Source: an archaeon GW2011_AR10 (GTDB lineage: Archaea > Iainarchaeota > Iainarchaeia > Iainarchaeales > GW2011-AR10). From it: 32,000 bases of DNA. Position numbers and translations under genes: made by a program. Under the pieces are notes generated by a model that worked only from the letters and a program-made list of their open reading frames with translations, did no database searches and was not told where the DNA came from. The DNA lies in the NCBI GenBank assembly GCA_000830275.1, contig CP010424.1, positions 1,170,001 to 1,202,000 of the forward strand. Reading direction: 5' to 3'. Shown in pieces: positions 6,231 to 30,447 of this stretch; positions within the stretch are counted from its first letter, which is position 1; each line of letters starts with the position of its first letter.

Positions 6231-6356
6231 CTGCTTTAGAGGCGGGGCATAACAAGGAAAGCAAGCTTTTTTTGCTCTGAATGGCCTCGTTTTTCTGGTT
6301 TTAACACTGTTTTTTTCATATTTTATGGGGCACTTTATATAAATAAGGCCATTTAT

Positions 6357-6436
6357 CAGCCTTTTAGGAAAAGGCTGGCGAAAAAAAGCCTACGGCAACA
6401 GCCTTTTAAAAAAAGCCCGTCGAAAATGCGCCTTCT
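6357..6436. repeat. Family-2 short-hairpin concatemer, copy I
   Basis: CAGCCTTTT-AGG-AAAAGGCTG, then GCC-TAC-GGC, then a second AGCCTTTTAAAAAAAGC unit. A TATA-like CTTTATATAAATAA lies at 6333-6346 just upstream. Confidence 0.75.
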
Positions 6437-6541
6437 GCTGGTTGTTTCTGGTTTCTCTCGCTTCTCTCGTCCCTTAGCTGGTTTTTCCTTCAATAAGCCG
6501 AATTCAAACAGTTAATTCCACTGTTTTTAAGCAGTGCGACG

Positions 6542-6826
6542 CTATAGTATATGGCAAAATGCTTTTGTGTTTGAACAAATAGCGAATGACTTTAATAATG
6601 GTAAAAAGCAAGTCATTCGCTATAGCAAAACGCTTAAGTAATTGAACATTGAATTGCGTTTTGCATCTAGCAAACAGCAGTATACAGTTCAAAAATATTG
6701 GCTGTTTGCTATAGTCGCAAAAGACATTAAGAAATTACCGAAACTAATGTCTTTTGCTAAAAAAATTGCATTTTGCATTTAGCAAACAGCAAATTAAATT
6801 TTCAAGAATCAAAGCTGTTTGCTATA
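6542..6826. repeat. Family-1 composite element, copy C (about 285 bp, 6-7 modules)
   Basis: Modules at 6580-6624 (GCGAATGAC/GTCATTCGC), 6621-6666 (GCAAAACGC/GCGTTTTGC), 6668-6713 (GCAAACAGC/GCTGTTTGC), 6714-6759 (GCAAAAGACAT/ATGTCTTTTGC) and 6780-6826 (GCAAACAGC/GCTGTTTGC), plus half-modules. Nearly identical to 26007-26283. Confidence 0.9.
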
Positions 6827-8185
6827 ATGTTGGCAAGCAAAAAAAATTTTGGGCTGGTTGTTTTAATGGCATTCAAAGAACAAAATTTGGGTGTTTTTGG
6901 TTTTTTCAAGTTTTTTTTTGTACTAATAATTTTTGCAGCTATTTTTTTGTTTGTCTTTTTTAACCCCCAGTATGCCAGATGGTACTATGTGTTAGTGGCT
7001 TCAATTGGCTTGTACATTGCGGTCTTCTATGTTCTAACTAATCGTTTGGAATCCGCGGTTTTTCCGCCTGCACTAAAAAAATTTCCCACTGTAACAGTAC
7101 TAATTCCCAGTTATAATGGTGGCGCAACTTTGCAGCGTTGCCTGGAATCTGTTTTGAGCTTTAATTACTCCCGTTCATTTGAGGTAATAGTAATTGATGA
7201 TGCAAGTACGGACAATACTTCTGAAATTCTTAAGTCCTTTCCGCAAGTTAAAGTCATTCGTCATCAAAAAAACCTTGGGAAAGCCAAGGGGCTGAACAAA
7301 GCCATCGGAAAAATAAAAAGCGAGCTCGTTGTCTGCGTGGATTCTGACACCTATCCAAATCCAAATGTTTTGCTGGATTGCGTGCCGCATTTTTACCATG
7401 GCACAAGAGTGGGTGCGGTTGCTCCATTTATTACTGTGGCCAGCACAAAAACATTCATCCAAAAAATGCAAGAAATTGAATACTATTCTGGCTTTGGTTT
7501 TTATTCAAAGGTTGCTGCAATGCTGGATGGGTTATATGTTACGCCAGGCCCCCTCAGTGTTTTCAAGCGCAGTGCACTTTTGGAGATTAAAGGGTTTGAT
7601 GAGGACAACCTCACTGAAGACATGGAAATTGCGCTTCGATTGCATGATTATGGTTATTCGCTTGCCTACTCGCCAACACAGGTGCCTACAGAGGTACCGG
7701 CTACTGTAAGAGGGTTTTATCGCCAGCGCCTCAGATGGTACCGCGGAACAATCTTCAACATTTTGAAATACAAAAAAATGTTTTTTAGCAGTCGCTTTAA
7801 TGAGTTTGGGAAGTTTTTCTTCCCAGCGCTGACAGTTTTTGTGGTTACTACTTTTTTGTCGTTTATAGTTATCTGGGGTTTAATATTTTTCAATATTTTT
7901 CAAGTCCTCCAGATATTTTTCTTGTCCCTGCTTTTCGGGCAATCACAATTGTCTCTGTCCTTTTTGGGGAATATTACTGTCAGCTCGCTGTGGGTTTTTA
8001 TAGGTTTGGCAGTACTGCTGTGGTACGTGTTTTTTGCGGAGAGCATTTCAATGTTGAGCATTAAAAAATCGGCGCAAATGGCCCTGCCTGCTATTGCAAC
8101 CATTTTCTTATACCCCCTTATAATTTCTTTTATTTACACTGTCAGCCTTTTTAAGGAACTAAACGCATCCAAGAGGGCGTGGTAA
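6827..8185 (+). CDS. Family-2 glycosyltransferase, processive beta-glycan synthase type (PgaC/IcaA/NodC-like)
   Basis: Motifs VIVIDDASTDNT, VCVDSDT, TEDMEIALRL and QRLRWYRG (the Q-x-x-R-W signature), with N- and C-terminal TM helices. The first ATG at 6827 (MLASKKNF) is chosen because the track start at 6773 lies inside the repeat. Confidence 0.8.
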   Translation: MLASKKNFGLVVLMAFKEQNLGVFGFFKFFFVLIIFAAIFLFVFFNPQYARWYYVLVASIGLYIAVFYVLTNRLESAVFPPALKKFPTVTVLIPSYNGGATLQRCLESVLSFNYSRSFEVIVIDDASTDNTSEILKSFPQVKVIRHQKNLGKAKGLNKAIGKIKSELVVCVDSDTYPNPNVLLDCVPHFYHGTRVGAVAPFITVASTKTFIQKMQEIEYYSGFGFYSKVAAMLDGLYVTPGPLSVFKRSALLEIKGFDEDNLTEDMEIALRLHDYGYSLAYSPTQVPTEVPATVRGFYRQRLRWYRGTIFNILKYKKMFFSSRFNEFGKFFFPALTVFVVTTFLSFIVIWGLIFFNIFQVLQIFFLSLLFGQSQLSLSFLGNITVSSLWVFIGLAVLLWYVFFAESISMLSIKKSAQMALPAIATIFLYPLIISFIYTVSLFKELNASKRAW

Positions 8186-8859
8186 CCTTGAATCGTTATC
8201 TGCTTGCTGGTTTGATTACTCTCGCAATATTGGGGGTTGTTTTTGGGGCGGTCCTGCTTTTAGATGACTGGCGGGTTTCAGGCATAAACAAAGACCTTGA
8301 AGATTTGAGCATTCAATCAGAGTCCAACAGAGTGCTTTTCTTTTATAACCAAGTTTTTGATCCCGCCGAAAACCCGCGGTTCTGTGAACTAGCCAACTCG
8401 AGCGCTACTCTCCGCTCCAACCAAGGAGACCTGCTTTTTGCAAAACTCGAAAACTATGAAGGCGCCAGTTTCTTTGGCAGTTACAGAATTCTGCGGCAAA
8501 AATACCTGCTTAACCGCATTGAACTGTGGCTTTTTACAACGCTTCAAAACAAAACCTGTGGAAGCAATTTTGTGCCGGTCTTGTTTTTTTATGAATCTAC
8601 TGTTGATTGCCCGGAATGTTTAGTGCAGGGAAACATTTTGGAAGAGCTCCGAAACCAATGCCCAAATGTAAAGATTTTTGCTTTGTCCGTAGATGAAGAA
8701 ATAGATTTAGTGCCTTTAATTCAGTCCCAGTTCAATGTTTCGACTGTTCCTTCCTTGGTTGTGGACAACCAATTTGTTTTTGAATCCTTAACCACTAAAG
8801 AAGAAATCTTAAGAAATATTAAATGTGAAGAAGTCATAGCGAAACGAATAGTTGTTTGA
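8179..8859 (+). CDS. Membrane-anchored thioredoxin-fold protein (CPEC motif)
   Basis: 226 aa. N-terminal TM LLAGLITLAILGVVFGAVLLL. VLFFYESTVDCPECLVQ...STVPSLVV matches a CxxC thioredoxin/glutaredoxin-like layout. Overlaps the GT2 stop by 7 nt. Confidence 0.55.
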   Translation: MVTLNRYLLAGLITLAILGVVFGAVLLLDDWRVSGINKDLEDLSIQSESNRVLFFYNQVFDPAENPRFCELANSSATLRSNQGDLLFAKLENYEGASFFGSYRILRQKYLLNRIELWLFTTLQNKTCGSNFVPVLFFYESTVDCPECLVQGNILEELRNQCPNVKIFALSVDEEIDLVPLIQSQFNVSTVPSLVVDNQFVFESLTTKEEILRNIKCEEVIAKRIVV

Positions 8860-8864
8860 CAAAT

Positions 8865-9005
8865 GGCGTTTTGCAACCAGCCAATAAAAGTTCAAGAATT
8901 AAAGCTGTTCGCTATATAGTAAAAGACATAAGTATTTACACAATAATTGTCTTTTACATATAGCAAGCGACAATAAATGTCTAAATATTAATGTCGCTCG
9001 CTATA
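8865..9005. repeat. Family-1 hairpin modules, cluster D (about 3 modules)
   Basis: Half-module GGCGTTTTGCAAC, then ...GCTGTTCGCTATA, then TAGTAAAAGACAT/GTCTTTTACATATA (8917-8962), then GCAAGCGACA/TGTCGCTCGC (8961-9005). Lies between convergent genes. Confidence 0.85.
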
Positions 9006-14666: not shown

Positions 14667-14758
14667 TATAGCAAAATGCTTGTGTGTTTGAACAAAAACT
14701 GCATTTTGCAACTAGCAAACAGCAAATTAATGCTCAAAAATCAAAGCTGTTTGCTGTA
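14667..14758. repeat. Family-1 hairpin modules, cluster E (2 modules)
   Basis: TATAGCAAAATGC/GCATTTTGCAAC (14667-14712) and TAGCAAACAGC/GCTGTTTGCTGTA (14713-14758). Lies immediately upstream of rpl10e. Confidence 0.85.
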
Positions 14759-14805
14759 GAGCAATCCTATAATACTCTTCAATTGCAATCATTTTTAAGG
14801 CTTTA

Positions 14806-15007
14806 GGTAAACCTTTTAGGAAAAGGTTTGCGAAAAAGTGCCTTCGGCCAAAACCTTTTAAGAAAAGGTTTATCAAAATGGGGCTGCGCCGAAAACCTTT
14901 TTAGAAACCCAAGCAAAATCATAGATTTTGCGGGCCTCGCAAAACCAAGGGTTTTGCAAGGAGTTTTATCAAAAAGTGCCTTCGGCTGAAAACTTTTAGG
15001 AAAACTT
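14806..15007. repeat. Family-2 short-hairpin concatemer, copy J (longest copy)
   Basis: Consecutive hairpins AAACCTTTT-AGG-AAAAGGTTT, GCC-TTC-GGC, AACCTTTT-AAG-AAAAGGTT, GGC-TGC-GCC, GCAAAATC-ATA-GATTTTGC, GCAAAACC-AAG-GGTTTTGC and GCC-TTC-GGC. Positions 14895-14995 align with 18775-18870. Confidence 0.85.
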
Positions 15008-16706: not shown

Positions 16707-16904
16707 TATAGCAAAATGCTTAAGTAATTGAACATTGAATTGCGTTTTGCATCTAGCAAACAGCAGTATACAGTTCAAAAATATTGGCTGTTTGCTATAG
16801 TCGCAAAAGACATTAAGAAATTACCAAAAATAATGTCTTTTGCTAAAAAAATTGCATTTTGCAACCAGCAAATTAATGCTCAAAAATCAAAGCTGTTTGC
16901 TGTA
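16707..16904. repeat. Family-1 composite element, copy F (deletion variant of C and G)
   Basis: Same module order as 6621-6826, with only a couple of substitutions over ~150 bp. It lacks the GCGAATGAC module. Its first module is a chimera (5' arm GCAAAATGC, 3' arm GCGTTTTGC). Confidence 0.9.
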
Positions 16905-16944
16905 GGTAAAAAGGTTTGCGTTGCATTTGGCTGCAAACGAAGAG

Positions 16945-17101
16945 AGCTGAGGATGGGAGTCGAACCCATCTCTTCCGCTTACAGCAACCAAAAGCTGCAA
17001 AAGACAGCTTTCTTTTGCTTTCTTTTGCTTTCTTTTGTAAACTTTTCTTTTCTAAAGAAAAGTTTCTGCAGGCGGATGCATGGCCGATCTGCCACCCCAG
17101 C
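16945..17101 (-). tRNA. tRNA-Cys (anticodon GCA) with an 86-nt intron at the canonical 37/38 position
   Basis: Hand-folded on the minus strand. Acceptor GCTGGGG/CCTCAGC (one G-U). D arm GCA-GATCGGCCA-TGC. Anticodon stem TCCGC/GCGGA with loop CTGCAGA. 4-nt variable loop. T arm ATGGG-TTCGACT-CCCAT. Discriminator T, no encoded CCA. Exons are 17066-17101 and 16945-16979; the intron is 16980-17065. Confidence 0.85.
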
Positions 17102-17215
17102 GAAACGGTAACCTCCGTTTACAAGGTGTGCCATTTTCAATGGCACTGGCTCGGCTCTTGGAGCCTCGCAACGGCTGGAACTTCAGCCGGCAAAGGTACC
17201 ATTAATCATTTTTGC
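17102..17215. other. Run of five consecutive perfect hairpins between tRNA-Cys and the ThiI-like gene (function unknown)
   Basis: AAACGG/CCGTTT (17103-17120), GTGCCAT/ATGGCAC (17128-17146), GGCTC/GAGCC (17153-17165), CGGCTG/CAGCCG (17172-17189), GGCAAA/TTTGCC (17189-17215). Confidence 0.5.
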
Positions 17216-17271
17216 CAGAAAACTTATTTAAGGGTACTATTGCTTTCTGAAGAGCTATTTTAACGGTTTTG

Positions 17272-18192
17272 ATGGAATGTTCCTGTATGAATGAGCAGGA
17301 ATGCGTGCTTTTGAAGACTTCTCCTGAAATATCCCTTAAAACCCATTACGTGAGAAGATACTTCACTGAAAAACTTGTTTCCAACATTAAAACTGTTTTG
17401 AGGCAAAACAAGCTCAGTGGCACTGAGGTCAGAAAAAAACCCGGCAGGCTGTTAATTTACTCTGAGAAAAAAAAGCTCCCGAAAATCGGCAAATTGATGG
17501 AAAACATTTTCGGCGTTACTTCAGTTGCGTTTGCCAACAAAATTGGTTCAGTTGAAAAAAGCGAAATAATTCTTGAAGCAGTAAAGCTAGCGGGGATGCA
17601 TTTTAGTGAAATGGACTCTTTTGCGGTCAGGGTTAAAAGGCACGGCACTCACCATTTCTCTTCAAAGCAGCTCGAGGAGGAAATAGGTTCAGCAATAAAC
17701 CAGAAAATTAACGGGTTAATTGTTGACTTGACTTCTCCAAGCAAAGAGCTGTTTGTTGAGGTCAAGGATCTTGAAACATTTTTTTACACTGAGGAAAGCC
17801 CTGCTGCAGGCGGGCTGCCTTTAGGCTGTGAAGGCAATGTTGCAGTTGAATTCCTTGGGAGAAAAGAGGAGCTGCTCGCAGCTTGGCTGATGATGAAGCG
17901 GGGCTGCAATGTTTTTCCGCTTGTGGAAAAGAAAACCAAAAAAATTGAATCACACATCAATAAGTTGAGGAAATGGAATTCTTTCAGGAAATTCAAGCTC
18001 ACAGAGTTGCAGGACAAGAAAGACTTGCTTGAAAAAAAAGATATTGCGGTAAAGGCAATAGTGAAGGCAGACACTGTTTTCTCACGAGAATTTGTTGCGG
18101 AGAAAAAAAGGCAGCCAGTGCCTGTCTTCTGGCCACTTGTTTTTTACCCTGAGGAATTGTTTGAACGCGATATAAAGAAGGTGCTAGGTTGA
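17272..18192 (+). CDS. ThiI-like THUMP-domain protein with a degenerate PP-loop domain
   Basis: LLKTSPEISLKTHYVRRYFTEKLVSNIKTVL (ThiI N-terminal style), a THUMP-like middle, then GGLPLGCEGNVAVEFLGRKEELLAAWLMMKRGCNVFPL, where the expected SGGxDS is replaced by LGRKEE. Short C-terminus. ATG at 17272. Confidence 0.6.
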   Translation: MECSCMNEQECVLLKTSPEISLKTHYVRRYFTEKLVSNIKTVLRQNKLSGTEVRKKPGRLLIYSEKKKLPKIGKLMENIFGVTSVAFANKIGSVEKSEIILEAVKLAGMHFSEMDSFAVRVKRHGTHHFSSKQLEEEIGSAINQKINGLIVDLTSPSKELFVEVKDLETFFYTEESPAAGGLPLGCEGNVAVEFLGRKEELLAAWLMMKRGCNVFPLVEKKTKKIESHINKLRKWNSFRKFKLTELQDKKDLLEKKDIAVKAIVKADTVFSREFVAEKKRQPVPVFWPLVFYPEELFERDIKKVLG

Positions 18193-18980
18193 TTAAAGGC
18201 GTTGTGTTTGATTTGGATGGCGTTATAGTCAACACTCCGGACATTTACTTTAAGACAATGAAGGAATATATTAGGGGGCACTCAGTCAAAGTAAAGGATG
18301 AGGATGTGTCCAAGCTAATTGGCTACTCGTTGAGGGACGAGCTAATGCTGATAAACCAGAAATATGGCCTCAATATTGAACTCTCTGAATTTGTTTCAGT
18401 TGTTCTCTCCAAGTCAAGGAAACTGATGGAAAAAGAGATGAAGGTCAATGATGGTTTTACTGAACTGCTTTCAGAACTGAAGGAAAACCGCTTCAAAACA
18501 GCTGTTGCCTCAAACAATGTTCCTTCAACAATTGATTTCATTCTGTCAAAGTACGGTTTCCTTGAGTCATTTGATGCAATTGTTGGAGCCGACGATGTGA
18601 AGCATGGAAAGCCCAGCCCTGAAATATACATTAAAGCAGTTGAAAAGTTGGGTTTGAAGAAAGAGGAGTGCATCGCAATTGAGGACACTTTAATAGGGTT
18701 AAAGGCAGTCAGTGCAGCTGGCCTTAAATGCATTGCTTTTCCAAACAAGTTCACTAACGGCCAAAACCTTTTAAGCAAACCCAAGCAAAATCATGGATTT
18801 TGCGGGTCTCGCAAAACCAAAGGTTTTGCAAGGAGGTTTGCGAAAAGTGGCCTTCGGCTAAAACCAAAGGTTTTACGAGGAGGTTTGCGAAAACGCAGCT
18901 CCGCCAAAAACCTTTTCGGAGCAGTTTTAACAATCGGGAGCCTCACTGAATTGAATTCAGGGGTAATAAGGGGGCTTTAA
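18189..18980 (+). CDS. HAD-superfamily hydrolase (beta-phosphoglucomutase/phosphatase-like, subfamily IA) carrying an in-frame repeat insertion near the C-terminus
   Basis: VVFDLDGVIVNT (motif I), VASNN (II), KHGKPSPEIY (III), IAIEDTLIGLKAVSAAG (IV). TTG start overlaps the upstream stop (TTGA). Residues ~193-240 are encoded by the family-2 repeat. Confidence 0.8.
   Translation: MIKGVVFDLDGVIVNTPDIYFKTMKEYIRGHSVKVKDEDVSKLIGYSLRDELMLINQKYGLNIELSEFVSVVLSKSRKLMEKEMKVNDGFTELLSELKENRFKTAVASNNVPSTIDFILSKYGFLESFDAIVGADDVKHGKPSPEIYIKAVEKLGLKKEECIAIEDTLIGLKAVSAAGLKCIAFPNKFTNGQNLLSKPKQNHGFCGSRKTKGFARRFAKSGLRLKPKVLRGGLRKRSSAKNLFGAVLTIGSLTELNSGVIRGL
18761..18916 (+). mobile_element. Family-2 repeat copy K inserted in frame within the HAD hydrolase CDS
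   Basis: Bounded by near-identical direct repeats CCAAAACCTTTT (18761-18772) and CCAAAAACCTTTT (18904-18916), whose ends are 144 bp apart. The interior aligns with intergenic copy J (GCAAAATCATGGATTTTGC, GCAAAACCAAAGGTTTTGC, GGCCTTCGGCT). Confidence 0.7.
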
Positions 18981-26006: not shown

Positions 26007-26283
26007 TATAGCAAAACGCTTATGTATTTGAACAAATAGCGAATGACTTTAATAATGGTAGAAAACAAGTCATTCGCTATAGCAAAACGCTTAAGTAATT
26101 GAACATTGAAACTGCGTTTTGCATCTAGCAAACAGCAGTATAAAGTTCAAAAATATTGGCTGTTTGCTATAGTCGCAAAAGACATTAAGAAATTACCAAA
26201 ACTAATGTCTTTTGCTAAAAAACTGCATTGCAACCAGCAACAGCAAATTAAATTGTCAAAAAAAATTAAAGCTGTCTGCTGTA
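26007..26283. repeat. Family-1 composite element, copy G (about 277 bp)
   Basis: Collinear with 6542-6826. By eye there are only about half a dozen differences over the central ~190 bp. Lies between the aIF1A stop and the rio1 start. Confidence 0.9.
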
Positions 26284-28087: not shown

Positions 28088-28467
28088 AGCGCTGTTGAAT
28101 GCTGTTGCATGATTCACAGAAACAATCAGCTAAAAACTGGCGGCATCAGTTCTTAGCATCCTCATCATCCTTGCGTCATCAGGTGTTAACCTCATTAATG
28201 TTTGAATTTTGGTGGGTTATGACACCCGCTTTAACCCCTGTTCCGGCCTCCATTTTGTAAATAGAATATAAATAATTCACATTAAAATTGTTGCTCTCAC
28301 GTTCAAGAACGAAGCAAAACACGGCACGGAACAAAGGCAAGAATAAGCCAAAAGCTCTTTACCTGGCAGAATTTATCTTTATAAAGAAATTATCTTTTCT
28401 TGTTGAATTGTATAAAGTTTTATTAAACCTATTCTTGTAAGATAATTAATCTGGAGGGTTGTTATTT

Positions 28468-28605
28468 ATGTGGGGGATAAAATCAAAGAAAGGTTTTGCT
28501 TTTGCATTTTACGCTTTCTTTGTTTCAAGTATCTTTTTTATAACAAAAAATAAATTAAAAAAGACCAAGCCAGAAAAAATATTTACGGCCAGTTCTTTGA
28601 GTTGA
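28468..28605 (+). CDS. Possible 45-aa single-TM peptide
   Basis: ATG 8 nt after GGAGGG. MWGIKSKKGFAFAFYAFFVSSIFFITKNKLKKTKPEKIFTASSLS. Below the ORF-track size cutoff. Confidence 0.3.
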   Translation: MWGIKSKKGFAFAFYAFFVSSIFFITKNKLKKTKPEKIFTASSLS

Positions 28606-28611
28606 TTTCAA

Positions 28612-29028
28612 ATGTTTGTGAAAAAAGAACAATTTATTGCTGTGTTTTTGGTGGTTTTTGCAGTTGCTTTATTGTTTCTTAGTGGTTGTTTGGAAAAGAC
28701 TTGTTTTAACCGTGCTGACTGTCCTTTAAGCGATTCCGAGTACATTCAAATCGCAAAAACAACTTCGGAAGCACAAGCATTCCTGCAAAAATATCCTGAT
28801 GCAAACATTGGGGTTGAGAGAACTGAATACTTGGCAGTTGACTTTATAAAAAATAAGTCAGGTGAAAGCACTATTGTTCCACCTTACTTGCGATTAAGAG
28901 TTTTTATAAACACTTCAACGAACAAGCCAGCGTCAGCTTTCATAGAATGTAACCTCACGGGTGACAACTATTCAAGAATAGACCAAGACATTGTTAATTA
29001 CATAAAAATAGAAAAATGTTTAGCATGA
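28612..29028 (+). CDS. Putative lipoprotein (hypothetical)
   Basis: Signal peptide with lipobox: FLVVFAVALLFLSGC. 138 aa. No family recognised. Confidence 0.5.
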   Translation: MFVKKEQFIAVFLVVFAVALLFLSGCLEKTCFNRADCPLSDSEYIQIAKTTSEAQAFLQKYPDANIGVERTEYLAVDFIKNKSGESTIVPPYLRLRVFINTSTNKPASAFIECNLTGDNYSRIDQDIVNYIKIEKCLA

Positions 29029-29509
29029 ACTAGCTCCCTTTCTTTTTCTTTTTTTTCTAATTTTTTGCCGAAATAAAAAAATTATTCAGAGGGAATCAGA
29101 GTTGAGTTAAATCATCATTCCCGTTGAGGGGTCAGAAGGTCTTAACTTCATCCCGCGCCTTCCTAATACTCTGTTTTTGAATGTGTTTAAAACCCTTTTT
29201 TTGGTCACTCGGAAGTGAGGCTTGTTTTTCAGTTCTCCATCAATTCTGCATTGTCCGGATTCTCGGGCGCAGACAAATATTTCAGGTAAGCCGTGATTTT
29301 TGAGTTCTAAAAGGATCTGTTTTGCGTATGTTTATTTCAAATAGTTCACATAAAGAAAGCGGGTTTTTCCAATTAGCCGGTTTTTTTGGAATTGGTGTCA
29401 TCGCCCTCCACTTTTCAGACTATAACCTCATCATCGTCTGCAGTAATTTATAGAGATTATTGCTTTAATTCTTTGCTTTTTTTTATATTCTGTTAAAGTG
29501 GTTTTTCAT

Positions 29510-29679
29510 ATGGGTAAAGAAAAAAATGGAAAGTTGTTATTTCAGAGAATGTTGTAAAGAAGATGGAAATGCTGCCTGAAAAAGACCAGAAAAAACTAAT
29601 GAATGCAATGGAAAAACTAGCTGAAAACCCTTATGCCGGCAAATCATCAAACAATTTAAATGGTTACGCTATAACGTAA
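29510..29679 (+). pseudogene. RelE/ParE-type toxin remnant (frameshifted in an A-run and C-terminally truncated)
   Basis: ATG GGT AAA G-A8 shifts frame into WKVVISENVVKKMEMLPEKDQKKLMNAMEKLAENPYAGKSSNNLNGYAIT*. This resembles the first half of RelE/ParE toxins and stops before the conserved C-terminal catalytic half. A TATA-like TTTTTTTTATATT lies upstream. Confidence 0.45.
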
Positions 29680-30110
29680 CCCTATTTAAATGCTTAAAAA
29701 GGGTTTGACTGGGTTAAGGCTAACAAAAGGCAGCGTAAATGTTAGTCTAAATCTTTGTGCTGGTTAGGCTGATAAGTGGCAATAACTTCCTTAGCCTAAC
29801 TGTCTGCCCAAACTTTCGAAAACTTTTTTCTTTTTCGGACAAGCCGCTTAATTTTGCATTACTACTCTTTTCTTTGCTCTAAAGCCAAATAGTTTGTATA
29901 AAATCCAAATTTCTTCCTATGGCAACGCTCAAAATACTGGTGCTAACAACTACGCTTTTTGCGAGGATGACCTCATAATCGCCTACTGTGATGTATAAGG
30001 ATTATTCCTTAAAATTAACGGTTTTTTGCAGAGAGCAACGTTCACCTAATCCAAGTAAAATTTATAATCTGGTAGCGCCTTTTATTCTTAAAATGAAAGG
30101 AGGTGAAATT

Positions 30111-30356
30111 ATGGCTGGGTTTTCGCAGATTAGTGCCAAGGCGGCTGCAATTACTGGTGCGGTTCTGGGTTTTCTGTGCGGTATTTTTTCAATCGGAATG
30201 GTTGGAATGATGGGGCTGAATTATGCAGGCTTTACCATGATGGGCGGCGCATATTCTTATCTGGGCTGGTTTACCGCAATTTATGGCCTTGTGATTGGCG
30301 CGATTGTAGGCGGATTAATTGCAATAGTATACAACTGGGCACTTTCACTCAAGTAA
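30111..30356 (+). CDS. Small Gly-rich two-to-three-TM membrane protein (possibly GlsB/YeaQ/YmgE-like)
   Basis: ATG 4 nt after GGAGGTGA. MAGFSQISAKAAAITGAVLGFLCGIFSIGMVGMMG...GAIVGGLIAIVYNW. The track start at 29988 is unlikely. Confidence 0.55.
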   Translation: MAGFSQISAKAAAITGAVLGFLCGIFSIGMVGMMGLNYAGFTMMGGAYSYLGWFTAIYGLVIGAIVGGLIAIVYNWALSLK

Positions 30357-30447
30357 AGAACATTGCAGAATTATGCTGTGTGCTTGATAAGCTGTTTTTG
30401 CTAGGCTGGGCTTAACCAAAGTGAGAATTCTGTCTGATTCAATCAGT

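Follow-up and report, generated by a model that had tools for sequence, protein, structure and literature searches.

Hairpin-doublet repeats in a DPANN archaeal genome as probable TA-targeting, non-autonomous mobile elements

Neisseria's Correia repeat enclosed element (CREE) is a small non-coding repeat of about 104-157 bp that duplicates a TA on insertion and for which we know of no cognate transposase. It is the closest analogue of the repeats considered here, called Family 1, which fill seven intergenic gaps in a 32,000-nt stretch (hereafter the window) of the genome of the archaeon GW2011_AR10 (CP010424.1, positions 1,170,001 to 1,202,000). CREE ends in 26-bp terminal inverted repeats (TIRs) starting 5'-TATAG (PMC5039591), and it occurs in hundreds of intergenic copies, often directly upstream of genes and with promoter-like end sequence (PMC2649163, PMC3184786). 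REPs, or repetitive extragenic palindromic sequences, are 20-40-nt palindromes tagged GTAG or CGTC and linked to REP-associated tyrosine transposases (RAYTs) (PMC3733652). REP doublets forming hairpins (REPINs) have been reported as not detected in archaea. In the Nostocales, Elhai and colleagues reportedly described in 2008 small dispersed repeats (SDRs) of 21-27 nt, which form hairpins, are mobile and are often nested in each other and in MITEs (miniature inverted-repeat transposable elements). Archaeal MITEs, such as SM1-4 of Sulfolobus and the PATEs (palindrome-associated transposable elements) of Haloquadratum, are 80-600 bp long and tied to known insertion sequence (IS) families. In a census of anonymous MITEs, a Woesearchaeon and Altiarchaeum rank top among archaea, and the density is high in DPANN genomes (PMC11602168).

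The window belongs to Candidatus Diapherotrites (Iainarchaeota, DPANN); its aRF1 protein is identical to an entry named Candidatus Diapherotrites archaeon, and the second-best match is only 72% identical. Hairpin-doublet mobile repeats are known mainly from bacteria, and Family 1 would look like their counterpart in a DPANN archaeon. Its arrays total 1,369 nt and take up 4.3% of the window, or 22% if only intergenic DNA is counted. We regard it as probable that they consist of non-coding, non-autonomous, TA-targeting elements of a MITE/REP-like kind, with a preference for insertion into or next to copies already present. An earlier sequence-only reading of this DNA had located the seven arrays, and they all lie where it placed them, except that array 4 starts at about 8837 and not at 8865.

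Each module is 43-45 nt long and is composed of an 11-12-nt arm that starts with TAGCAAA, a 21-nt AT-rich loop and a complementary arm, with the consensus TAGCA-AAnnRC-WTTAATWTTTGAACAWTT-ATTG-YnnTT-TGCTA (MAFFT with strand choice allowed) and module ends TATAGCAAA...WTTAATWTTTGAACA. The formula proposed by the sequence-only reading, TA-GCAAA, variable nucleotides, an AT-rich loop around TTGAACA or TGTTCAA, their complement and TTTGC-TA, is correct. Its view of the stem variants as a mosaic of different modules does not hold, since what look like separate types (A, A', B, C, C', D, E and F) align as a single family when the strand is left free, with an oriented, conserved loop and with stems in which the base TAGCAAA is followed by 3-4 covarying base pairs. 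Because the loop is asymmetric and conserved, namely in its 5' half (WTTAATWTTTGAACA), the module has an orientation, and a covariance model built from the window modules and run without filters (R1) scores the right strand 20-30 bits above the other one.

Complementarity of the stem arms is maintained in the DNA itself and on both strands. Across the 12-bp stem, 88.9% of the cells are paired, where shuffles give 76.6% and a slid partner gives 31-56%, and the window-based alignment contains 55 two-sided changes where 18.3 are expected, a number that none of 500 shuffles reaches, together with only four cells showing one-sided changes of the G-U intermediate type. This near absence of wobble pairs points to a constraint acting on a DNA palindrome rather than on an RNA helix. 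A broad alignment of all loci, with the consensus TAGCAAAtaaC-nTTAATttTyGnA...GttaTTTGCTA, gives 121 two-sided changes against 33.7 expected, in a set retrieved with a pattern that had already restricted three stem positions to a purine or pyrimidine class.

Assembly artefacts, or palindromes arising by chance in AT-rich spacers, would be conceivable sources of such a pattern, as the intergenic DNA has a G+C content of 36% (42.7% for the whole window) and repeats are prone to mis-assembly, but both are refuted. The exact pattern TAGCAAA-N20-45-TTTGCTA occurs five times in the window, where 0.04 occurrences are expected. Perfect hairpins (stem of at least 9 bp, loop of 10-32 nt) number 25 in the window, compared with 4.5 +/- 2.1 in dinucleotide shuffles, and 24 in the intergenic DNA only, where shuffles yield 1.7 +/- 1.3, so that the palindromes are clearly commoner than in shuffled intergenic sequence. 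R1 detects 27 full modules of 43-45 nt, all of which fall within the seven arrays, the rest of the 32 kb having none, and interrupted copies are present besides; an iterated nhmmer profile drifted and lost window modules, because a hidden Markov model cannot model covarying stems, and was dropped in favour of the covariance model. Counted over all loci, 76 of 82 modules lie outside mechanically called open reading frames (ORFs) of at least 100 aa, and the remaining six overlap mostly spurious ORF extensions. The window locus recurs with 99.5-100% identity in six independent assemblies from different samples and assemblers (including NCBI GCA_013332025.1 and JGI 3300025308), and the arrays are identical or nearly so in all of them, which excludes an assembly artefact.

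Neighbouring modules had been described as head-to-tail, but once the loop is used to assign orientation they are mostly convergent (+)(-) pairs. This pair, of about 90 bp with a 2-3-nt spacer and with different stems in its two partners, is the recurring unit, and as single-stranded DNA it folds into two independent hairpins (z -2.6 to -6.9; minimum-energy and centroid folds). Because the outer arm borders directly on the conserved loop half, the doublet has imperfect TIRs of about 26 nt, in which arm and conserved loop half match at 17-19 of 26 positions. A TA stands on the outer flank of 71 of 78 modules, compared with a background of 5.6%, and the doublet termini therefore read TA|TAG...CTA|TA; the inner spacer is variable (GA in 32 cases, TA in 11 and TC in 10). 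All ten doublets or arrays inspected have TA on both sides, and a Family 1 empty site is absent from the data. In the part of the GW2011_AR10 genome that was covered, about 58 kb, the non-coding units measure 44-95 bp and copies at unrelated loci are 91-96% identical.

The modules are also nested within each other. In arrays 3 and 7, a B module, an A-C doublet and a D module interrupt the loop of an A' module of which array 5 has an unbroken version, and the right half of this A' module and its partner C' come after them; the two halves of array 3, when joined, give an intact A' module as at 14669. The A-C doublet stands alone in array 2 and lies within composites elsewhere (copies at 6621, 16707 and 26078, 93.5-94.6% identical to that of array 2), and the composite as a whole occurs at three loci with 90.8-92.7% identity.

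Evidence for insertion at TA comes from a sister family (TAGAG/ATGGA) with the same architecture as Family 1, found in a DPANN population from the same aquifer sample series. Its module is a 45-nt hairpin, TAGAGAATTAGCC-19-GGCTAATTCTCTA with the loop start TAATTTTGTTAC, paired with an ATGGA-type hairpin, and it reaches only 13-15 bits under R1, which makes it a family distinct from Family 1. A 141-nt insertion between an FKBP-like gene and ftsZ distinguishes contigs L245 and L246 from contig L247, with flanking identities of 99.6% and 99.95%. GTAATGC-TA-ACTGC is the empty site and GTAATGC-TA-(TAGAG...TGTCCA)-TA-ACTGC the filled one, which amounts to a 139-nt element with the imperfect TIRs TAGAGAATTAG / TGGACAATTAG and a 2-bp TA duplication. 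At a second site, near tgt, strains that are 98-99.7% identical have no module (L254), three modules (L252, L253, L256) or four (L249).

Two further observations were made in these contigs. The 19-nt loop of a TAGAG module is inverted between L252 (221-265) and L253 (1192-1236), whose flanks are 99% identical, which suggests that recombination between the 13-bp inverted arms has flipped it. A small insertion of a different kind, a GC-rich element of about 145 nt with two or three hairpins (CAGAGAACTCC..GGAGTTCTCTG, GGGGAGCC..GGCTCCCC), lies downstream of a 64-aa gene in one species (L243 4712-4855) and is absent from relatives that are 87-92% identical (L245 / L247 / L248).

Family 1 itself is not restricted to the window. 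The 19-kb flanks contain one further doublet only (window-equivalent 37097-37199). In a metagenome scan with the pattern TAGCAAAYRRC-N17-25-GYYRTTTGCTA, the matches listed are mostly 43-44-nt hairpins with family-like loops, on contigs of 27-45% GC from groundwater and sediment, alongside GC-rich chance palindromes. R1, which was trained on Iainarchaeal modules only, gives the metagenome modules 35-61 bits with a clear strand asymmetry, and chance palindromes about 27 bits on either strand. Among the matches listed, neighbouring modules outside the window are (+)(-) in at least 40 loci, (+)(+) in one and (-)(+) in none. By exact protein match, module-bearing contigs were assigned to Candidatus Pacearchaeota (L225) and Candidatus Woesearchaeota (L134, L205), and others encode archaeal RNase P p30 and phenylalanyl-tRNA synthetase; in one low-GC DPANN population, a 98-bp doublet is present at many unrelated loci with 82-100% identity. 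A loose pattern, GCAAACAGC-N16-28-GCTGTTTGC, run over a genome collection, produced among the matches listed chance bacterial palindromes and one real match, in the GTDB representative 'Candidatus Iainarchaeum archaeon' (L121), which carries an A'-C doublet.

Gene order is preserved in the three closest Diapherotrites relatives (aRF1 69-72% identical), but 3 x 21 kb of their DNA contain no module and the gaps are far shorter, with 89 nt upstream of uL16 compared with 670 nt in the window. A pattern scan of 2.9 million viral contigs revealed no family member and only two chance palindromes, and BLAST searches against phages and plasmids gave no match. Rfam has no match to the window at gathering thresholds, and the matches to array 3 at E values up to 10 are all far below gathering. 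In the open-access literature searched, no description of the 44-nt modules, the doublets or their spread across DPANN phyla was found, and searches with sequence strings led to unrelated primers only; the sequence-only reading had likewise been unable to assign the unit to a described archaeal repeat class.

Set against the described systems, Family 1 shares with CREE the small size, the non-coding nature, the TATAG...CTATA ends and, in the doublets, TIRs of about 26 nt. It differs from CREE in the TIR sequence, as the 26-bp repeat 5'-TATAGTGGATTAAC... is absent and only the first five bases (TATAG) are common to both, and in the host, which is bacterial for CREE; furthermore, CREE has a conserved core with an integration host factor (IHF) site and lacks two self-complementary halves, whereas each archaeal half is itself a hairpin with covarying stems. 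A resemblance to REPs and bacterial interspersed mosaic elements (BIMEs) had been proposed, and it is accurate as a description: like REPs, BIMEs and REPINs, Family 1 comprises short extragenic palindromes, alternating or inverted units, mosaic clusters and doublets of about 100 bp with compensatory stem evolution (PMC3116915, PMC2817692, PMC3733652), and its modules are found in every gene context, upstream, downstream and in divergent and convergent gaps. The features that define those elements are the tag, the RAYT and the long hairpin. Family 1 has no GTAG/CGTC tag, is AT-rich with a conserved 21-nt loop instead of a GC-rich 20-40-nt stem-loop, folds its doublets as two hairpins and has no RAYT in the loci examined, and its sister family duplicates TA.

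TA-targeting MITEs, such as Stowaway and others derived from IS630-Tc1-mariner, or those of the type of the enterobacterial repetitive intergenic consensus (ERIC), also have TIRs and TA on both sides, and they are small, non-coding, nested and dispersed in many copies (PMC3184786). Unlike them, Family 1 has internal hairpin symmetry and no related autonomous IS in the loci examined, and its length, from 44 nt (single) up to about 90 nt (doublet), is close to the lower size limit of known MITEs or beneath it. The sequence-only reading had set a simple MITE aside, but the convergent doublet, the imperfect TIRs, the outer TA flanks and the TA duplication of the sister family favour a MITE. The likeness to SDRs is limited to the very small, nested hairpins, since these differ in host, length and sequence and no doublet organisation is known for them; the Sulfolobus and Haloquadratum elements, which are non-autonomous and archaeal as well, are longer and IS-linked. 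A CRISPR array was rejected, in agreement with the sequence-only reading, on account of modules that abut at 0-5 nt, alternating orientation and the absence of cas genes from the window and its 19-kb flanks, the best Rfam CRISPR-DR match having an E value of 10. Readings of the modules as C/D-box small RNAs, attC sites or split tRNAs were ruled out on anatomy.

The nesting, the recurrence of the same units in different contexts, the composite copies and the lineage-specific presence argue indirectly for mobility, and Family 1 elements would thus be, or would formerly have been, transposable. Several points weigh against this. In the window and its 19-kb flanks, the Pfam lists contain no transposase with matching ends, and no autonomous IS with module ends was found in the 58 kb or beside the modules in about 100 other loci. 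Strains diverged by up to 0.45% carry identical arrays, with no presence/absence polymorphism of Family 1, and copies within the window differ by 5-9%, so that activity in the GW2011_AR10 genome may be old. The insertion point in the A' loop is an A-run, at which no TA duplication is readable; covariation is seen within modules and not between doublet ends, and a classic TIR transposon needs none; and the conservation of the loop motif across phyla could be the effect of a host protein. A search for orthologous empty sites of Family 1 gave none, as assemblies of the same species are too similar, the nearest relatives are too distant and the similar modules in metagenomes lie at loci that lack orthology to the window.

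Concerning the enzyme, the precomputed Pfam lists of called genes agree with the sequence-only reading that the window has no transposase, Cas or reverse transcriptase gene. ORFs beside modules in other contigs are ordinary genes in Pfam scans, and the clustering of 549 ORFs from module-bearing loci revealed no multi-copy gene. A DDE_Tnp_1 ORF beside a doublet in L226 and an IS66-like element in L139 were considered as mobilisers and rejected, as their ends are unrelated to the modules. The latter element (L139 9477-10835, also L257-L260) comprises a 65-aa DUF2080 ORF and a 452-aa DDE_Tnp_IS66 ORF about 1 kb from a doublet, and it is multi-copy, on many short contigs of the module-bearing DPANN population.

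A rival explanation is an archaeal system of the REPIN-RAYT type, in which hairpins are recognised as single strands by a single-copy HUH/Y1 enzyme (IS200/RAYT-like), cleaved beside the hairpin foot and copied as inverted doublets. Extragenic hairpins in inverted doublets and mosaic clusters, complementarity within each hairpin instead of between the element ends, a conserved stem base and loop nucleotides as structure-specific recognition predicts, and the lack of an ordinary transposase nearby, as with single-copy RAYTs, all agree with it. We nonetheless hold it to be distinctly unlikely, since the terminus reads (T)ATAG, with an A before TAG in 71 of 78 modules and no GTAG/CGTC tag, the doublet forms two hairpins and not one long one, IS200/IS605-type transposition makes no duplication of the kind present in the sister family, and no locus examined has a Y1 gene. 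Furthermore, only the IS200-type Y1 subclass 1.1 is known in archaea (PMC6006769).

It is unlikely, too, that the modules are primarily host-maintained cis elements spread by recombination, be it as outward promoters with a TFB recognition element (BRE) and a TATA box, as bidirectional terminators, as insulators or as sites of chromatin or topology proteins. Iainarchaeota, Woesearchaeota and Pacearchaeota have the 5' half of the loop in conserved form, its reverse complement (CGAAAATTAA / CCGAATATTAAT / TTCAAAAATTAAT) resembles a BRE and a TATA box facing outward, several arrays come to within 0-35 nt of start codons, and a module end and its adjoining TA form GCTATAAT next to some starts, for instance upstream of the L10e gene, which is suggestive only; promoters are also carried by the Correia elements of Neisseria (PMC2649163, PMC3184786). 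However, three relatives have no modules in the orthologous intergenic regions, array 4 is located where two genes converge with their 3' ends, and outer ends face gene starts in 37 cases and gene ends in 25, which is not a significant difference (7 of 14 in the window). Nesting, composite copies and an insertion polymorphism among strains that involves TA duplication are traits of mobile DNA. A host function as a secondary role is possible. Stable hairpins with covarying stems and a conserved loop, which must be transcribed where they lie within co-directional gene runs, might finally suggest small RNA genes or RNA-level regulatory hairpins. This is very improbable, given that the ratio of four one-sided to 55 two-sided changes implies constraint on both strands, that both orientations are equally common relative to the flanking genes, that no Rfam match appears even at E = 10, that modules are nested and interrupted, and that the loci are not conserved in relatives.

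The 43-45-nt module is the basic unit of Family 1, and the convergent pair with TATAG...CTATA ends is, to go by its structure and its copies, the unit that usually propagates. If Family 1 is a TA-targeting mobile element, a protein supplied in trans would recognise the ends of the doublet, and the element would insert at TA and duplicate it. Insertion would often take place in or beside existing copies and give rise to nested mosaic arrays, and the resulting composites could then move, or be copied, as blocks set by their outermost ends. As a secondary consequence, neighbouring genes could be affected by hairpins in transcripts, by T-runs or by the TATA-like sequence at the ...GCTA|TA junction.

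More distinct families of TA-flanked 45-47-nt hairpins (TAGAGAACTGCGTA.., ATGGATAACTGC.., ATAGGTCTTCCC.., TAGAGAAAACCGAT..) were observed in low-GC DPANN contigs, for instance in an 800-bp mosaic (L219 5920-6700), in L216 (3243-3333) and in L233 (1415-1506), which speaks for a superfamily and not a single family. We advance only tentatively, and with more doubt than belief, the wider proposal of a DPANN-wide superfamily of TA-targeting hairpin doublets in Iainarchaeota, Woesearchaeota and Pacearchaeota, which would correspond in archaea to the bacterial REPIN/BIME or Correia elements. An enzyme that is possibly single-copy or domesticated would recognise its conserved 26-nt ends, or these would double as portable BRE/TATA promoters read by TBP/TFB, which, if true, would be the reason for the conservation of the loop motif between phyla.

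DPANN genomes are among the smallest and most compact cellular genomes. The share of intergenic DNA taken by one repeat family in the window, and orthologous gaps that are several-fold longer than in relatives, therefore indicate that selfish DNA shapes even reduced genomes. A hairpin-doublet family common to three DPANN lineages, together with the strain polymorphism of its sister family, offers a concrete system for finding the enzyme that moves it, and Family 1 can also be used to address the promoter and terminator question. Such repeats probably break DPANN metagenome assemblies, and they are usable as strain markers.

The arrays differ in complexity, and five of them (1, 2, 3, 5 and 7) lie 0-52 nt from start codons; other settings are downstream of genes, one divergent gap (array 2) and one convergent gap (array 4). 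The genes of the window are archaeal housekeeping genes, which encode aRF1, TruD, archaeal UMP kinase, Dph2, ribosomal protein uL16/L10e, an S-layer protein, a ThiI-like protein, topoisomerase VI, eIF-1A and RIO1, among others. Arrays 1 and 5 are single (+)(-) doublets. Array 1 (734-826) is composed of E1 (736-778, +, 55.7 bits under R1) and F1 (781-824, -, 56.1 bits) with a GA spacer and TA on both outer flanks, and it folds into two hairpins with a z of -6.9. It lies 18 nt upstream of the start (717) of a minus-strand MJ0043_C-like gene and 95 nt downstream of a 107-aa gene, and its E-F doublet has a second genomic copy, 95.7% identical, on contig L236. Array 5 (14667-14758) is an A'-C' doublet (14669-14711, +, 48.1 bits; 14713-14756, -, 52.4 bits) upstream of the minus-strand gene for ribosomal protein L10e/uL16, from whose start (14633) it is separated by 33 nt, and a 95% identical doublet is present in metagenome contig L189.

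Array 2 (1263-1517) occupies a divergent promoter gap and has two (+)(-) pairs: F2 (1266-1309, +), a partial duplicate of a D arm (1310-1336) and D2 (1337-1379, -), then 47 nt of non-module DNA and the A-C doublet (1427-1470, +; 1472-1515, -). Its modules score 47.2, 47.1, 55.5 and 51.6 bits, and it ends 17 nt before a GTG start at 1535. Array 4 (8837-9005), with the order (+)(-)(+)(-), fills a convergent 3'-3' gap with a degenerate A module (8837-8876, +, 20.3 bits, E 0.013), C'' (8871-8914, -, 42 bits), D3 (8917-8959, +, 52.2 bits) and E2 (8961-9003, -, 55.3 bits), and the degenerate module supplies the last codons and the stop of the ORF at 8179-8859.

The nested composite of array 3 (6542-6826) begins with the left half of A' (6552-6579, +), which nhmmer matches at model positions 3-27, and continues with B (6580-6622, +), A (6623-6666, +), C (6668-6711, -) and D (6715-6759, -), that is, (+)(+)(-)(-), before the right half of A' (6758-6777) and C' (6780-6824, -). 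The five full modules score 44.2, 55.5, 52.9, 46.1 and 52.3 bits, and the array abuts the ATG at 6827 of a glycosyltransferase ORF, for which 6866 is an alternative start. Array 7 (26007-26283), between eIF-1A and RIO1, both on the minus strand, is a second copy with the same order of orientations and 90.8% identity to array 3 over 283 nt. It contains an A left half (26009-26036, +; nhmmer model positions 1-27), B (26037-26079, +), A (26080-26124, +), C (26126-26169, -), D (26173-26217, -), a right-half remnant (26218-26236) and C' (26228-26281, -), with 43.8, 52.3, 55.2, 50.5 and 25.0 bits for the full modules. In array 6 (16707-16904), which is 92.7% identical to array 3 over 206 nt, the first module (16709-16752, +) is chimeric and combines an A' arm with an A loop and an A right arm; it is followed by C (16754-16797, -), D (16801-16845, -), a remnant of the A' right half (about 16846-16863) and C' (16859-16902, -), with scores of 53.8, 52.9, 49.4 and 46.6 bits. 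Array 6 is a deletion derivative of the composite in arrays 3 and 7, in which the deletion fused the A' arm to the A loop.

Other features of the locus are unrelated to Family 1 or lie beside it. A second repeat family consists of tandem units of about 42-47 nt (AAACCTTTTAGGAAAAGGTTT + GCGAAAAAGTGCCTTCGGC) with two small hairpins per unit; it is found at 2189-2267, 6344-6438, 14796-14997 and 18760-18958 and often adjoins Family 1 arrays. Its last copy falls within the 3' end of an ORF for a haloacid dehalogenase (HAD) hydrolase (18189-18980, 263 aa) and may encode a C-terminal extension of the protein, since the ortholog in the relative L238 has only 219 aa. On the 3' side of array 6, a 380-nt non-coding stretch (16905-17286) carries at about 16944-16990, on its minus strand, what resembles the T-arm and the acceptor 3' half of a tRNA (GATGGGTTCGACTCCCATC...). 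ARAGORN predicts no tRNA in the whole window and Rfam gives nothing at E <= 0.01 for this stretch, which may be a split tRNA, an intron-containing tRNA or another structured RNA.

Near array 1, to the left of the window start, the MJ0043_C-like gene encodes 423 aa in L234 (10528-11799) and 870 aa in L235 (10531-13143). The longer form contains Intein_splicing and LAGLIDADG domains, and the difference therefore represents a presence/absence polymorphism of an intein in the population. A region of 2.3 kb (28088-30447) has a single ORF (138 aa) and several AT-rich hairpins, with no Rfam match at E <= 0.01. Within it, contig L236 (ERZ27254739), which is 99.96% identical to the window from 28164 on, has another neighbourhood before that position; at the junction, a repeat of about 100 nt ending GGCTCAGAGTTGAGTTGAC occurs twice, and a like motif is found at 29086-29127. 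A third repeat family marks this junction, which reflects either a rearrangement or a chimeric assembly. In two metagenome contigs (L194 1-151 and L204 1098-1249), a hairpin module (TAGCTAACGAC..GTCCTTAGCTA) adjoins a tRNA 3' half at the point where contigs of 99.7% identity diverge, which may be an integration junction.

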